NCBI GenBank assembly: GCA_951406725.2
Contig: OX597827.1
Location: forward strand, 44,020,001-44,084,000
DNA: 64,000 nucleotides
Direction of reading: 5' to 3'
Origin: Octopus vulgaris
Taxonomy: Eukaryota
Part shown: piece by piece, positions 5,961 to 63,887 of the stretch
Layout of the letters: every line of letters starts with the position of its first letter
Numbering within the stretch: position 1 is the stretch's first letter
The notes under the pieces: model-generated
The model's database searches: none
Seen by the model: the letters and a program-made list of their open reading frames with translations, nothing else
What the model was told of the DNA's origin: nothing
Program-made: the position numbers and the translations under genes

Positions 5961-6325
5961 CTAATATTTAGTAGACATGCCCTTTGAATTTTTCAGTGCA
6001 AGGACATGTTACACATGTTACTGATCAGTTGACGAATATTCTCTCTTGCCAAGTTTCATGCAGTAATCTCAAAAGATCTGGCTTTGAAGATGCTTTCTTG
6101 TTCTTTTTATGAAGTGTCCTGTCCATTATGTCCCAGAGGTGCTCAATAGGGTTCATATCAGGTAACTGGCTAGGCCATTGAACCTTTTGAATGTCATTGT
6201 CATCCAACAAATTTTGGGTCATTTTAGCCGTGTGACAAGGAGCCCCGTCTTCCATAAATAAAGAGTTTTCTTTAATCATTTCACTACTGGAGAAGATTGG
6301 AAGAAATCCTTTCTGCAATATGGAT
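5961..6325 (-). pseudogene. Tc1-family DD34E transposase fragment (C-terminal part)
   Basis: FMEDGAPCH...WPSQLPDMNPIEHLW with 34 residues between D and E; out-of-frame C-terminus VLALKNSKGMSTKY*. Confidence 0.9.
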
Positions 6326-6673
6326 ACATCTATCTGAGTTTATGTTTCCCTTGTGAATCGGTGATCGCGTCTACGAGTGATGGCGTGCACGAGTCTAATG
6401 CGAGTGAAAGTGATTCAGAAAACGATTATAATATTTTTCCTATTATAAATGATCTTGACATTCTTTTTACTGTACATAAAATATTCCTTGCATTCCACTG
6501 TTGTTTTATTGCCTGTCGTTTACGAGTATTATAAATTTTATAGGTAAACTTTTTTCTGGGAATGAATTACGATTTATAACATTGCTACTATGGGAAATTA
6601 TTGCTCTGCTTTACGAGTTTTCACATTACGAGAGGTCTCCAGGAACTAATTAACTCTATATCGTGGGCTTACT

Positions 6674-10644: not shown

Positions 10645-11062
10645 GGCGGCGAGCTGGCAGAAACGTTAGCACTCCGGGCGAAATGCTTAGCGGTATTTCG
10701 TCTGCCGCTACGTTCTGAGTTCAAATTCCGCCGAGGTCGACTTTGCCTTTCATCCTTTCGGGGTCGATTAAATAAGTACCAGTTACGCACTAGGGTCGAT
10801 ATAGTCGATTTAATCCGTTTATCTGTCCTTGTTTGTCCCTTCTGTGTTTAGCCCGTATGCGGGTAGTAAAGAAATAGGTATTTCGTCTGCCGCTACGTTC
10901 TGAGTTCAAATTCCGCCGAGGTCGACTTTGCCTTTCATCCTTTCGGGGTCGATTAAATAAGTACCAGTTACGCACTAGGGTCGATATAATCGACTTAATC
11001 CGTTTGTCTGTCCTTGTTCGTCTCCTCTATGTTTAGCCCCTTGTGGGCAATAAAGAAGTAAG
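10645..11062 (+). mobile_element. SINE family 2 (Nin/Deu-like central domain), tandem dimer
   Basis: A-box tggcagaa, B-box gagttcaaattcc, core gcctttcatcctttcggggtcgattaaataagtaccag; second unit starts ~10878. Confidence 0.85.
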
Positions 11063-11460: not shown

Positions 11461-11950
11461 ATCATCATCATCATCATTGTTCGACCGTGGTCGAGACAAT
11501 GGAATTTACTATGTTACGCCAGACTTCACGGTCCATCATAGCATTACGGATGTCCTGTTGCTGGATGCCTGTATCCCTGGAGATTACATCAGGGTAGGAG
11601 AGTGTGCGCCCTCTGGTATTGCGAGTAGATGGCTTCCAGAGGAGAAGAGTAGAAATTACTTCTTTTTCAGCTCTACAACAATGTCCAGCAAACTGGACTT
11701 TCTTACCTTTCACAAGAGATGACACAGGTGGTAGTTTCCCATATATTTGCATTTTGGTTGGATGGCGCTTCCACGAGAGATTTTGAGCTCTCATAAGGAG
11801 GCGAGTGTAGGTTCCATCCAACCGCCTCTCAAGCTTCTTTGATAACGTCCAGGTTTCTGAGCCATATAGTAGAATTGGTTCGACTGTGGCTTTGAATATT
11901 TCAAGTTTGAAGTCTCTACTTAGATTTGATGACCAGATCTTATGCATGTC
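11461..11950 (-). mobile_element. 5'-truncated RTE-type LINE (RT C-terminus and (TGA)n tail)
   Basis: KIWSSNLS..KLEIFKATVEPILLYGSETWTL..QFAGHC..MMDREVWR; uninterrupted frame to stop at 11474, then TGA repeats. Confidence 0.9.
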
Positions 11951-11951
11951 A

Positions 11952-11987
11952 CTGAAGAGGTCTAACATGACCGAAACAAGTCCAAAG
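11952..11987 (+). ncRNA. Minimal hammerhead motif (family E), stem I disrupted
   Basis: CTGAAGA-GGTC-TAACAT-GACC-GAAAC-AA-GTC. Confidence 0.6.
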
Positions 11988-12547
11988 TTGTTACCCATTA
12001 CTTGATTCACATTTATTGTTTAATGAATTTTGGTTTCAGAGTAATGTCACCTGAATGTCTTCACAAGAATTAAATAATTACGACTAATGAATTTCCTTTC
12101 ACTTCACTACCGGCGAAATATTAATTAACTGATTAACTAAAAGTTTTTGGTGATCTCATTACAAGATGTACATTAGGTTCTATGTAACTAAATGTTCTTC
12201 ATGCACACAGACTCTCCGAAGAAATCTCTCCAAGTTATATTTTTATCACCTGCCAAATCACTTAATGGCCTTTACTCAATTTTTCTTGATAAAAATATAA
12301 CTTGGAGAGATTTCTTCGGAGCGTCTGCGTGCATGAAGAACATAGAGTTAAACAGAGACTAATGTATATCTTGTAATGAGATCGCCAAAAACTTTTAGTT
12401 AATCAGTTAATTAATAATTCGCCGGTAGTGAAGTGAAAGGAAATTCATTAGTCGTAATTATTTAATTCTTATGAAGACATTCATTTGACATTACTCTGAA
12501 GCCAAACTTCATCAAACAATAAATGTGAAGCAAGTAAGGGGTAACAA

Positions 12548-12588
12548 CTTTCGACTTGTTTCGGTCATATTAGACCTCTTCAGCGAAG
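12548..12588 (-). ncRNA. Minimal hammerhead motif (family E), mirror copy
   Basis: Minus: CTTCG-CTGAAGA-GGTC-TAATAT-GACC-GAAAC-AA-GTC-GAAAG; stem I imperfect. Confidence 0.6.
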
Positions 12589-22160: not shown

Positions 22161-22568
22161 GTTGCCTTGCGATGTTTCTTCCGTGTCTTTGTGTTTGGAG
22201 TTCAAATCTTTGCCTTCCATGGCCTGTTTAGGTGTTAGACTAAATCCGTTCCTCGCTTCAACATCGCTACCACGAACCTGGGAAGCCTTTACTGGAGTCC
22301 GGTCTGTTACAAGCACTTGTGCAAGGTCTCCGACTTGAGGAAAATTGCAGATTCTGCCACAAATACAACATGAGGAAACAATGTAATTATTTTGGTTTCT
22401 AGTACTGATATACATTTGCTAAAAATGGTTTATCCATTATGTTGGAAATCTATATTGTTTTCTCCAAATGAGGAGAGCAGTTTCTTTCAAATGATTTAAT
22501 ATTTTCATTGATCGATTAGGTGGAGCCGCTTGAAACGGCCGTAATGCATTGATACCTGGACATCCTTG

Positions 22569-33358: not shown

Positions 33359-33424
<66 letters not shown>

Positions 33425-33604
33425 TAAATAATTAGGGTTCAGCAACGATTTGCCTCACCACACACCGAATTTAGAAATAGCAGTCAAAAAGTCTTGGCTA
33501 TTCCTTCTACTTTAAAGGGAGATCCCAGTAAAACCAAAGCACTCAAGAACAAACCACGCAGGTAAAAGAGAAAGAAATGACGAAAATCATTCTATATTAA
33601 GTTG

Positions 33605-33695
33605 CCTACGGACGCGCGTTTCGGAATTAAGCCAGTATAGAGCATAAAAAATAAATAATTATACCTTACCCGACTATTTTCCTCATCAGCGTAGG
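33605..33695 (-). ncRNA. Type-I minimal hammerhead ribozyme, fully canonical core
   Basis: Minus: CCTACG-CTGATGA-GGAA..52 nt..TTCC-GAAAC-GCGC-GTC-CGTAGG; 6-bp stem I, 4-bp stem II base, palindromic loop 3, GUC triplet. Confidence 0.9.
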
Positions 33696-34139
33696 ATTCT
33701 TCAATTATAAATAATTGCCTCTCAATTATTAATAATTGTGTATTAAATTTAAAGGCACTAGAAAATATCACTTCACCTCACGGTATCAGAGAGAACGTAT
33801 ACCTTGCTAGTACCGCCAAATTCAAAACGTGAATGAGAGTAAGTCACTCTCCCCTGTCCACCAGCGTGTTGCTAAAGTAAGATGCTACAGTTTTTTTCTG
33901 GGAGGAAATACCATTATCAATAATAACAAAATGTATATGCATTCATTAACTCACAGATCTTCAGCATACACACACACAAATACTCACATATATTTCTATA
34001 TATCTATCCATCTATCTATTTGTGTGTGTGTCCGTGAGTGTGTGTGTGTATGTGTGTATGTATTTATGGCGTGCGTATGTGAGTTAATTATATTCTGTAA
34101 CATGAGTTGTTAGATGTACGTTTATTACTAAACACCAAA

Positions 34140-35204: not shown

Positions 35205-35320
35205 TTTCTTACGGCCGTTTCCGCTTCCAATATTAATCGGAGCTTACGAAATAATTTCGAAATAATTTTCGTCATCTTCATAGCACATTCGATCTAGTAC
35301 ATGGAGCTTCGTCAGAGTGA
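35205..35320 (-). ncRNA. Hammerhead motif with long stem II (mirror of 35451-35560)
   Basis: Minus: CTGACGA-AGCTCC...GGAAGCG-GAAAC-GGCC-GTA. Confidence 0.6.
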
Positions 35321-57012: not shown

Positions 57013-57064
<52 letters not shown>

Positions 57065-57283
57065 ACAATTGAGGGTAAAATTAATTAGTTATTAATCAAT
57101 TTCATCAAGTATTCAGTATGTAAAAGGACCATTTAAGGCGAATTCAAAATATTACATTATATAATTAGGGCTTAGTAAAATAAATTACTTTGCCACATAC
57201 TGAACTTGCTAGAAATAGCAGCCCAAAAAGTTTTTTTGCCATTTCCACTACTTAAAGAAAATTTCTCTCAGATAATGTTTAAA

Positions 57284-58098: not shown

Positions 58099-58355
58099 GG
58101 CGCAATGGCCCAGTGGTTAAGGCAACGGACTCGCGGTGGGAGGATCGCGGTTTTCATTCCCAGACCGGGCGTTGTGTGTGTTCATTGAGTGAAAACACCA
58201 CGAAGCTCCGGCAAGGGGTGATGGTGACCCCTGTCATACTCTTTCGCCCCAACTTTCCCTCACTCTCTCTTCATGTTTCCTGAGTAACGCTGCGATGGAC
58301 TGGCGTCCCGTCTGGCTATGGAGAACACATACGCCACAGAAAACGCGAACGTCCC
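58099..58355 (+). mobile_element. SINE family 3
   Basis: Homology to 23588 copy. Confidence 0.85.
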
Positions 58356-58359
58356 GTGG

Positions 58360-59120
58360 ATGGGTACTTCCTGGAAAGATGCGAGCATTTGGGCACTTTC
58401 TGGAAAGTTCAGACGATGGGACTTCCTACAGAGCTCCAAAGATATCATGGATTTGGTTCTTCCTGGAAAGTTCCGAGAATTTACTGGAAAGCACCCAGAA
58501 TGGGTACTTCCTGTTAAGTTCCGATTATTTCGTGGGAAGTTCCGAGGATTTGGGCATTCTCTGGAAAGTTCCGAGGATGTGAGTTCCCGGAAAGTTCCGA
58601 GCATGGGACATCCTTGGAAAATCCGAAGTTGTGTACTTCATGAAAACCTTCGAGAATTTTCGGCAAAGTTCCGAGGATTTGGGTACTTCCTGGAATGTTC
58701 CGAGGAAATATTACTTCCTGGGAGGAGGATGAATTACTTTCTGGGAAGTTCCGAGGGAAAATTACTTCCTCGCAAGTTCCGAGCGAAAATTACTTCCTGG
58801 AGAGTTCCGAGGAAACATTACTTCCTGGGAAGTTCCGAGGGACAATTACTTCCTGGAACGTTCCTGCGAGTAGGGATGAATTGCTTCCTGGAAAGTTCCG
58901 AGGATGGTGAGGAGCTGATTATTATTTCCTGGAAAATTCCTTGGAGTGTCTGAATTACTTTTGGAAAGTTCCGAAGATATGGATTAATTTGTTCCTGAAA
59001 AGTTCCGAGGAATGTGAGGAGTTGGATGAATTATTTCCTGGAATGTTCTAGGGAGAGGGGATGAATGAGTGTTATTATTTCCTGTAAAATATCCAGTGGT
59101 GGAGGAATTATTTCATGAAA
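58360..59120 (+). repeat. Minisatellite, core TTCCTGGAAAGTTCCGAGG, ~25 units, ~27-35 bp period
   Basis: Counted by eye. Confidence 0.9.
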
Positions 59121-60027: not shown

Positions 60028-60409
60028 TGGGAAATCAATTCAAAGTAGGCGAATGGGCGGAAGTGCTTTAAAAGATGAGGACCTCAGCAGAGAGTATTAG
60101 ATGAAAATGTCAATATGTGAGGAAGCTTAAAGACTGATGTACAAAATGGCGTAGAGTATGAGAGAGGGGAAAGAAAACCTTGCGGCGGCTGATGATACAA
60201 AATCTCAAATATTAAAAATTAAAGGGCTTTTCTTACCTTAATTTACATATTTCCATGCTTAGGAAATATATATATGTATGTATATATGTGTGTATGTACA
60301 TACACACACACACATATATATTTATGTATGTATATATATATTAAAAGCATGAAGGCATACATATAAAGATGTGTGTGCGTTAGTGTGTAAGCTTGCATGT
60401 ATGTATTCC

Positions 60410-60570
60410 TCCCCTACCTCCTCTTCCTCCGTTCCTCGGAGCTTTCCAGAAGCCCCCCACTCCTTCCTCAGAATTTCCAGGAAGTATCCTTCTATCTCTC
60501 TCCCTCCTCTGAACTTTCTAGGAAATCGCTCCTTTCCTCGGAGATTTCCAGGAAGTCATTCCTCCCCTCC
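60410..60570 (-). repeat. Same minisatellite, opposite orientation, ~5 units
   Basis: cctcggagctttccagaag / gaatttccaggaag units. Confidence 0.85.
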
Positions 60571-60618
60571 ATACACACACATAAACAAAAGCATATATAA
60601 ATATTATATATATTATGT

Positions 60619-60697
<79 letters not shown>

Positions 60698-60968
60698 CCT
60701 TTTTCTAAAACATCAGTGTTTATTATATACAGACGGAAAATGACCATAATAATGAAAATATAATATGGTGTGTGAATATTTACCCAGTGGGCTCTTAAAT
60801 ATTTATTCCTAAATACTCACAAATTCTCTTTGAGTAGAAAAACAAGAAATACTCCAAATTTTAAGCGTATTCTTCACTGCTCAATCTTAATTTCCACATC
60901 ACTAAACGAGAAATAAACGCTGAAATGTGATCAGATGTTTGTGTGCGAATGTACAATAGTATATATTC

Positions 60969-62220: not shown

Positions 62221-62345
62221 AACACTCATACAAAATGCACACACTTGTGTCTTTAAGAACAAATACACGCGCACACATGTAGATATAAATATACATATGT
62301 AGACATACATGCACACAAGCATACACATAGACATACACACACACA

Positions 62346-62390
<45 letters not shown>

Positions 62391-62770
62391 ACACACACAC
62401 ACGGTCTTACGTGTCCGAATCCTACTTCTTTGCCTGCTTTGTTTGTCAGCTCATTTATATTTTCTTTTTCTTTTCCTTTTTTGCTTTTTATCTCTCTTTA
62501 TCTGGTGACATTAGAAATAAAATATATTTCCGCTGCGTGCGTGACAAACGCTGCACAGTTTCACACCTTTCTTTGTATCATGTGTTTAAAATCGACTGTT
62601 TTATTACCGTGTTATTCCTACTGTCCTCTGTTGTAGCTCGAATGGGATTCCATAAATCAGCTGCTGTTTCACCTTCTCCTGTGTGTGTTTTGTATCCACC
62701 TGCTTTTCAATACATTTTCCTTCATTTAAATTGTGAGTTGTTCTTCTCTGGTTATTTCTTCATTTTGAAT

Positions 62771-62893
62771 TTGGCTGAATCATTAGCGCACCGGGCAAAA
62801 TGCTTAACGGCAATTCGTCACTCTTTACGTTCTGAGTTCAAATTTTCGAGGTCGGAAAATGAAATACCAGTGAAACACAGGGGTCGATATCTT
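62771..62893 (+). mobile_element. SINE family 2, deleted copy
   Basis: ttagcgcaccgggcaaaatgctta..cgttctgagttcaaatt. Confidence 0.75.
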
Positions 62894-63630
62894 CGAAACT
62901 TTCCAGGAAGTCCTTCTTCCTCCCTTGAAAATGCCAGGATTTCTCTCCTCTCTCTTCCTCCTCTTCCTTCGCTACTCGGAACTTTCCACCCCTTCTTGGA
63001 ACTTTCCAGAAAGTCCTTCTTCCCCTTTCTCTCCCGCCTCGCAACTTTCCAGGAAGTCATTCCTCCCCTTCATGGAACTTTCCAGAAAGTCCTTCTACCC
63101 CTTTCTCCCCCGCCTCGCAACTTTCCAGGAAGTCTTTCTTCCCCTTCCTTCCCTTCTCGGAACTTTCCGGGAAGACCTTACTCGCCTTCTTTGAACTTTC
63201 CAGGATGTTCTTCCTCCCCATCCTCAGAACTTTCCAGGGAGTCAATCTCCCCTGCCTCTCCCTCACCGGAACTTTCCAGGAAGTCCTTCCTTTACATCAT
63301 CGGAACTTTCCAGGAAGTCTCTTCCTCTCATCGAAACTTTCTTGGAAATCTTTCCGCCGGAAGTCCTTCAACCTCGGAACTTTCCAGGTAATCTTTCCTC
63401 CGGTCTTCCCCTCCTCGGAACTTTCCAAGAAGTCACTGCGCCTTTCCAGGAAGTTATTCCTCCCCTTCCTCAGAACCCTCCATGAAGTCTTTTTACCCCT
63501 CCTCTCCTTCCTATGAACTTGTCAGGAAGTCCTCCTCCCCCGCTCTTCGGAACTTTCAGGAAGTACCTCCCCTCTCCTCCCCTTCCTCTCCTCGTCGGAA
63601 CTTTCCAGGAAGTCTTTCCTCCCCTTCCTC
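62890..63630 (-). repeat. Same minisatellite, opposite orientation, ~20 units with pyrimidine-rich spacers
   Basis: Repeated ggaactttccaggaagt. Confidence 0.9.
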
Positions 63631-63887
63631 AGCTCTTTATTGATGTTAACTCCACGTATTTTTGTAATTTTTTGTGCTGTAACTCGTGCTTCGATATTAT
63701 CCCCCGTGTCTTGTGCCCTTGTGGCCAATCAAAGAAATCATCATTATTAGTATTAATATTATTATTACTATTATTATTTTATTGTTTTTGCACAGCTTCT
63801 AACGCTGGAGATGTACTACGTTATCAGCTGTTCTAGGCAGTGCTATTTTCTGCAAGTGCTCCACAGTGCTATTTGTTCCACGTACTG

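Follow-up and report, generated by a model that had tools for sequence, protein, structure and literature searches.

An intact hammerhead in a 5′-truncated, probably Penelope-like repeat copy of Octopus vulgaris

A hammerhead motif found intact at a single genomic locus raises two questions, namely whether RNA from that locus cleaves itself and what the motif is part of. The case considered here lies in a 64,000-nt stretch of Octopus vulgaris DNA (in the following, the window), where an intact type I hammerhead occupies positions 33695-33605 of the minus strand. It has the CUGANGA ... GAAA ... UH core in a three-way junction with an open stem I. The original prediction, drawn from the bare sequence, had described a minus-strand stem I, CUGAUGA, a GGAA/UUCC base of stem II, GAAA and a palindrome before GUC, with a cut between 33611 and 33610; all of these parts are in place, and the position of the predicted cut is correct. 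It had left unmentioned the length of stem II, the C at position 1.7 and the fact that the element end it had seen is one of two 3′ ends of the family. The individual features are:

33702..33738, minus strand: AT-rich hairpin immediately upstream of the hammerhead (predicted fold; self-complementary BLAST match)
33690..33695, minus strand: 5′ strand of stem I, read from the sequence, with covariation across the family
33683..33689, minus strand: catalytic core C3-A9, CUGAUGA (G5 = 33687, G8 = 33684)
33623..33682, minus strand: long stem II of 60 nt, with a 4-bp base, a 3x3 internal loop and a covarying extension
33682-33679 with 33626-33623, minus strand: stem II base, GGAA pairing with UUCC
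33619..33622, minus strand: core G12-A15.1, GAAA
33612..33619, minus strand: 8-nt palindrome ACGCGCGU, which in two copies is predicted to pair as an intermolecular helix III
33610..33611, minus strand: predicted cleavage site, with C17 at 33611 and the cut between 33611 and 33610
33605..33610, minus strand: 3′ strand of stem I
33604, minus strand: position 1.7, C in the window copy and U in 50 of 72 family copies

The hammerhead in the window is not a chance match. A strict hammerhead descriptor found it as its only match on both strands of the window and had no match in 150 dinucleotide shuffles; genome-wide, the exact core plus palindrome occurs at 147 sites, compared with 1 for the control. 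The full-length Rfam model (RF00163, Hammerhead_1) matches 33605-33695 of the minus strand with 24 bits (E=0.0028), which is below its gathering score of 34, and an Rfam scan of the window at the gathering level returned 0 matches; the long stem II is probably the reason. While this low score would suit a chance resemblance or a decayed fossil, such a reading is refuted by the shuffles, the genome-wide counts, the covariation of the fold described below and the existence of nearly identical copies, and its probability is negligible.

The hammerhead is also not specific to this locus, but belongs to a dispersed, non-coding repeat of ~600 bp. A search of the 2.8-Gb genome with positions 33424-33860 yielded 54 matches with 88-98% identity, which come from 40 scored of 2041 first-look candidates and thus represent the best-scored loci, not a copy number; the closest copies are 96-98% identical to that in the window. 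Likewise, a 25-nt end motif has 144 exact genomic matches and a subfamily-specific hammerhead pattern 14, compared with 0 for the control in each case. In the flanks of these loci, head-to-tail units measure 591-604 nt with a GC content of 34-36%. The longest stop-to-stop frames in four natural tandems span 45-68 aa, no reverse transcriptase (RT) or GIY-YIG frame was found in these four, and a tblastn search of the window gave no match. Family copies stop either at an end (a) or at an end (b), which lies 102-107 nt further on; we refer to the segment between them as the tail. The window copy is 96% identical to the natural unit at locus L004, and its homology stops at 33930 and 33424:

33424..33930, minus strand: 5′-truncated solo copy of the repeat, 507 bp, corresponding to positions 92-592 of the unit in L004
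33915..33930, minus strand: last ~15 nt of a tail segment at the 5′ junction (the copy starts at unit position 92, and the tail ends at 102-107)
33424..33437, minus strand: 3′ end of type (a), the upstream one of the two family ends and likely a reverse-transcription start site, as inferred from PMC11167929
33362..33423, no strand: (TA)31 microsatellite, the likely insertion target, TA-rich flanks being common at family ends
~57054-57281, minus strand: piece of the younger sister family C, comprising end (a) and a 102-nt tail

The window copy carries a single hammerhead and lacks a tail downstream. The claim that the element ends about 180 nt downstream of the cut and is followed by (TA)n held up, with CCCTAATTATTTAG at 33437-33424, 187 nt past the cut, and then (TA)31. 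Beside the closest relatives of the window copy (family A), there is a subfamily B with 71% identity over the unit, and a sister family C, which has a 564-nt unit and shares mainly the end region. The copies of family C are mostly 96-100% identical to each other, its search gave 1927 first-look candidates, and its hammerhead has a 10-nt palindrome and a shorter stem II (loci L172-L201).

Conservation of the ribozyme was assessed on 72 distinct hammerhead sites, which include two truncated rows and one misparsed row and, being taken from the best-scoring loci with anchors of at most 5 mismatches, are biased to intact copies. The core is intact in 57 of them. At N7, which is free in the core motif, 24 of the 72 copies deviate, and at every other core position 0-6. 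Eighteen sites, including the window copy, are without a flaw in the core, the palindrome, stem I or the stem II base. The window copy had been singled out as the best candidate for an active ribozyme; the equally perfect copies and the 147 genomic sites that carry the exact core and palindrome speak against this. For covariation, 68 aligned sites were used (of the 72, three truncated and one misparsed were dropped), in which 95.2% of the cells are paired, compared with 15-38% in controls with a slid structure. Pairs switch in stem I (CG:34/UA:30 and UA:48/CG:15), in the stem II extension (AU:36/GC:28) and at the palindrome centre (CG:40, UG:16, UA:5), so that changes on both sides are seen for two pairs of stem I, two of the stem II extension and one of the palindrome centre, while the 4-bp base of stem II is nearly invariant. 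These cell counts multiply a few inherited events, and the number of pairs with double-sided changes is 5 compared with 5.7 in a column shuffle, with 433 of 500 shuffles reaching 5. Read with this in mind, the covariation of stem I, the long stem II and the palindrome between subfamilies points to selection on the fold.

Two positions outside the core bear on a possible tertiary contact. The A adjoining the 3′ strand of stem II is kept in 69 of the 72 copies. U1.7 is found in 50 of them, i.e. in all 32 of subfamily B and in 18 of 40 of family A, and is replaced by C in the sub-branch of the window copy; in the DNA-like sequencing run X18, the U allele at 33604 accounts for a depth of 21342 of 22154. 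As summarized in PMC11875169, this U has been proposed as the Hoogsteen partner of a loop-2 A; one of the section titles of that paper states that the U is not essential in the construct used there. We infer that the window copy, with its C, may be without a rate-enhancing contact.

Can such a hammerhead work on its own? In the predicted monomer, helix III has a pairing probability of 0.00, and in the minimum-energy fold the palindrome is base-paired to the core. What had been called a textbook-intact ribozyme is a genuine type I hammerhead with a covarying fold, the sole strict match in the window, yet its helix III amounts to 2 bp and a palindromic tetraloop, and U1.7 is absent; neither 'textbook' nor 'best candidate' is supported. 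For two copies, by contrast, the unconstrained minimum-energy fold is a double hammerhead (-60.3 kcal/mol, compared with -48.6 kcal/mol for two monomers), which fits the dimer form that the original prediction had allowed for. Five natural tandems carry two hammerhead sites 565-600 nt apart, and the double hammerhead is predicted in four of them, with an inter-copy helix III probability of 0.88 in L018, 0.96 in L093, 0.79 in L117 and 0.95 in L176; the exception is L013 (0.0), which has G-U palindromes. Of the two hammerheads, the upstream one is damaged in L018, L093 and L117, whereas L176, a tandem of family C, has two complete hammerheads. On a larger scale, the minus strand is structured (-144 compared with -117±7 in 15 shuffles) and the plus strand is not (-92 compared with -92±5), and cut-to-cut units folded as circles reach -140 to -170 kcal/mol, compared with about -120 to -125 in 12 shuffles each. 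Given that strong structure is confined to the hammerhead strand of the unit and that the tandems fold as described, the working context is likely a tandem transcript.

The alternative that the window hammerhead is a self-sufficient monomer, which would cut any minus-strand transcript of the locus helped by a tertiary interaction of the flank of stem I with the 3x3 internal loop of stem II, appears improbable to us. Its core and stems are perfect, the fold predicted for the whole element contains stems I and II (pairing 0.55-0.98 and 0.86-1.0, respectively), the A beside stem II is conserved, and, according to Cervera & de la Pena 2020 (PMC7229834), retrozyme hammerheads from coral (~0.8/min) and mussel (~0.1/min) with a 2-bp helix III cleave as monomers. 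However, helix III and the partner at position 1.7 are lacking in the predicted monomer, and compensatory changes maintain a palindrome for which a monomer has no need. Furthermore, 8 of 9 Xenopus retrozyme dimers remained uncleaved in vitro and 1 of 9 was cleaved (Li, Clavereau & Pollet 2026, bioRxiv 10.64898/2026.07.22.740005). We hold it more likely than not that the window copy cleaves in vitro as a dimer in 10 mM Mg2+, consider efficient cleavage as a monomer unlikely, and see little prospect of meaningful cleavage in vivo of RNA from this locus. With one hammerhead, no tail and a C at 1.7, it is less promising as an active ribozyme than the tandem copies; as its transcript would carry a single hammerhead, cleavage would depend on another RNA acting in trans or on a protein. 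The choice of transcript matters as well: the one originally proposed, from 33760 to 33560, is predicted to misfold, with a stem I pairing of 0.15-0.26, compared with 0.55-0.98 for 33700-33600 or the whole copy.

How such copies reached their places can be read from the anatomy of their insertions. Clustering the matches fetched at the A and B loci gave 102 distinct insertions. TA-rich sequence follows 63 of the 76 ends of type (a) and 59 of the 67 of type (b), and 52 of the 102 are head-to-head inversions with 3′ ends at both outer edges. Among these 52, 43 combine an end (a) with an end (b), 0 combine (a) with (a), 0 combine (b) with (b), and 9 are unclassifiable. The mixed combination is likewise seen in 30 of the 37 inverted insertions at loci that were found without the tail in the query, and in 17/17 inverted insertions of family C, for which the query contained the tail. 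A partial tandem overlap is present in 17 of the 102 insertions, and no array of more than ~2 units was found among 102 + 28 insertions. Repeated flanks of at least 10 nt occur in 14 of 77 spans and in 47 of 609 mismatched controls, a comparison confounded by TA repeats; some of the 77 spans, moreover, are hairpin artefacts or come repeatedly from one locus. Clear target-site duplications are seen in few cases overall, e.g. at L009 (15 nt), L043 (13 nt) and L130 (14 nt), and none was found at the window copy.

These observations bear on a further alternative, i.e. a classical tandem-array retrozyme or satellite, spread via circular RNA or unequal crossing-over and independent of priming of the Penelope type. 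The head-to-tail arrangement of non-coding units of low GC content would suit it, as would the stable predicted circles, which resemble the retrozyme circles described in PMC7229834. We nevertheless give it only a slight probability: arrays beyond ~2 units are missing from all insertions analyzed, and the fixed ends (a) and (b) and the head-to-head inversions are marks of Penelope-like elements (PLEs) that crossing-over leaves unexplained.

The hammerhead lies near the 3′ end of this pLTR-like repeat, with the cut site 187 nt upstream of end (a), and one may ask whether cleavage leaves its mark on the insertions. 5′ ends do not accumulate there: of 137, 1 lies within 3 nt of the cut (~1.3 expected), and of 43 in family C also 1 (~0.8 expected). 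An intact cut site is traversed by 66 of 137 arms, whose sequence continues upstream of it. We thus found no genomic trace of cleaved templates, and both uncut and religated templates fit. It is conceivable, though we hold it only tentatively, that the hammerhead stays uncut until a PLE protein binds and that cleavage is not needed for insertion. This would agree with the arms that run through the cut site and the missing pile-up, and also with work on an Anolis PLE (PMC11167929), whose hammerhead was cleaved only with protein, whose core mutants left insertion in vitro unaffected, and for which no RNA-seq ends were found at the cut site. On the other hand, strong double-hammerhead folds are predicted without any protein, and read-through of the cut site also fits a circular template that was religated. 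Protein assistance is compatible with the explanation that we favor, and both may hold.

That explanation is, very probably, an intact hammerhead in a lone, 5′-truncated and likely non-autonomous Penelope-like copy of the retrozyme type, which is predicted to cleave only as a two-copy double hammerhead and is likely a rarely cutting passenger. Its sequence-based part comprises the dispersed family, the unit length, the two fixed 3′ ends, inversions and partial tandems, the TA targets, the lack of an ORF and the covariation, and its folding-based part the missing helix III of the monomer and the double hammerhead in dimers and natural tandems. The attribution 'PLE-derived' is based on insertion anatomy, not on homology. 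Mechanistically, tandem source loci would be transcribed, and a natural tandem unit is predicted to fold back on itself, so that two successive hammerheads meet. The double hammerhead in such transcripts could then release the ~600-nt unit, possibly in circularized form. A PLE protein with RT and GIY-YIG activity, acting in trans, would nick both strands of a (TA)n target, and reverse transcription would be primed at end (a) on one strand and at end (b) on the other. Priming at both ends would yield head-to-head insertions with one tailed arm, and the window copy would be a single arm primed at (a).

In another predicted helix, the sequence upstream of end (a) pairs with the tail, which places end (a) inside a multibranch loop. 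All three families, A, B and C, retain this helix (L004 1392-1560, minus strand; L138 1800-1975; L176), and we regard it, as a modeled structure, as a candidate domain for recognition by the reverse transcriptase; its tail half is absent from the window copy. In a bolder version, which we regard as speculative, the three subfamilies would form one lineage of ~560-600-nt RNAs, in which paired hammerheads excise a circle and a borrowed Penelope protein copies it into (TA)n, always with (a) and (b) starts ~105 nt apart. If this were true, the absence of (a)+(a) and (b)+(b) among 60 classified insertions would reflect a rule by which the two strands are primed asymmetrically in vivo, and the recognition element that fixes this asymmetry would be the conserved RNA domain of the long tail.

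Is there a partner that could provide the protein? The genome carries intact 781-aa ORFs with RT and GIY-YIG domains, and the ends of these elements abut (TA)n at two positions ~40 nt apart. They form a young autonomous PLE family with many open frames of this length (L105-L108, L067, L072) and have a hammerhead-like motif of their own with the core UUGAUAA; L108 also has a 479-aa frame upstream. This core corresponds to the U3-A8 variant that PMC4209133 reports for Schistosoma PLEs. We found no DNA similarity of the unit to four full-length 781-aa elements, all of one family. Similarly, 30 GIY-YIG loci (of 148 matches from 6136 candidates) showed no similarity to the unit, except for family copies inserted at L068. 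RT and endonuclease fragments occur near family copies at L047/L048, L133, L152/L153 and L178. We considered the adjoining pieces at L047, L152 and L178 as remnants of a partner and rejected them, as TA repeats or other DNA lie between them and the family copy, and they look like separate insertions. An autonomous partner was thus not found in the GIY-YIG search, the four full-length elements or a tblastn search of family flanks. In the 3-kb flanks of several loci (L068, L069, L174, L208, L215, L217, L221, L225, L226), we came by chance upon unrelated hammerhead motifs of the same build, with 40-77 nt from the core to GAAA and 8-nt palindromes of differing sequence. A hammerhead architecture with a long stem II and an 8-nt palindrome seems to be common in this genome.

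As to its kind, the repeat is a known one, namely a hammerhead-bearing non-autonomous PLE derivative or non-LTR retrozyme. The hammerheads in the pseudo-LTRs of metazoan PLEs (Cervera & de la Pena 2014, PMC4209133; review PMC6765202) share with the present family the type I topology, a short palindromic helix III and G10.1-C11.1, and also predicted dimer activity, mostly single copies, compensatory changes between families and some pairs on opposite strands 100-700 bp apart. With 6 bp in helix I and 4 bp at the base of helix II, the present hammerhead fits the 'canonical' and not the 'minimal' class of PMC4209133. It differs in stem II, which measures 51-62 nt in families A and B compared with the 7-8 bp given in both sources, and in that A9 and G10.1 of the window copy adjoin each other directly, in contrast to PMC4209133 (L025 and L030 have a 2-nt insert there). 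The same two sources report no or weak monomer activity and weak dimer activity.

Animal non-LTR retrozymes (PMC7229834) are likewise non-coding, with a GC content below 45%, one type I hammerhead per unit and a stable predicted circle. Li, Clavereau & Pollet 2026 regard retrozymes as non-autonomous PLE derivatives, and the present unit is within their length range of 51-972 bp. It is longer than the 170-400-nt retrozyme circles shown experimentally, and differs further in that long arrays were not seen and most insertions are inverted or truncated. At the level of the family, units with one type I hammerhead each follow one another head to tail; this is not the case in the window copy, which by the two-hammerhead rule of Li, Clavereau & Pollet is a 'monomer' and not active. 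Tailed insertions of endonuclease-positive PLEs (Arkhipova 2013 PMC3846280; Craig 2021 PMC8557442; Frangieh 2024 PMC11167929) resemble the present ones in their partial tandems, two 3′ ends and AT-rich or (TA)n targets, and in having an inverted 5′-truncated arm and a tail that is confined to one end. The present tail of 102-107 nt is about three times as long as the 30-40 bp given there, and no ORF follows it. Two start sites of reverse transcription explain the PLE layout in vitro for the Anolis element (PMC11167929). The departures from published cases are quantitative, i.e. the ~105-nt tail, the stem II of 51-62 nt and the strict (a)+(b) pairing.

We found no description of this family in literature searches on octopus hammerheads and octopus Penelope elements, though supplements of these papers, Repbase or Dfam may contain one; an annotation of octopus repeats (PMC13282606) lists Penelope-like families, with 0 occurrences of hammerhead, ribozyme or retrozyme in its main text. 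By its own account, the preprint of Li, Clavereau & Pollet did not test the link between retrozymes and Penelope outside vertebrates. The single locus is of little significance, being one of many passenger copies, while the family, as a clean case of a retrozyme from Penelope in an invertebrate-type genome, is of modest significance. Its long tail separates the two start sites in the genome, which makes the two-site model derived from Anolis in vitro countable on real insertions, and the natural tandems are ready constructs for the question of whether PLE hammerheads cut without protein.

Contigs of three presumed-RNA runs (X1-X3) contain family-like pieces, none of which spans the whole stretch. 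Their depth is 0 at 33937-33955, the unique flank adjoining the window copy, although such a hole in contigs proves nothing. Contig stops at 33602-33605 were considered as a cleavage signal and dismissed, since X18, a DNA-like run, likewise has contigs that end at 33599-33604, beside the variant at 33604. No host exon was recognized in the window by Pfam in 137 unmasked frames of at least 55 aa, a length that short exons would escape; the scan gave one piece of a DDE transposase and two weak DUF matches.

About one third of the window consists of simple repeats. The transposase fragment (DDE_3, E=2.3e-9) lies at 6028-6339 on the minus strand. At 11949-12586, there is a 300-nt inverted pair, 93% complementary with a 38-nt spacer, which has a hammerhead-like core and a 4-bp stem II at each outer end (11952, plus strand; 12583, minus strand) and a poor stem I; an ORF piece with a weak DUF6451 match (11480-12019, minus strand) adjoins it. 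Degenerate hammerhead-like pieces, consisting of a core or of GAAA plus palindrome, are scattered at 22468, 35456, 38492, 45471 and 56182 on the plus strand and at 35315, 28017, 37979 and 45828 on the minus strand, and none of these nine passes the strict descriptor. A 185-bp repeat, which we take to be SINE-like, forms two tandem copies at 10692-11057. Finally, short, degenerate repeats rich in GGAA/TTCC remain free of stops over several hundred bases at 58190-58950, 60350-60760 and 62300-63840.
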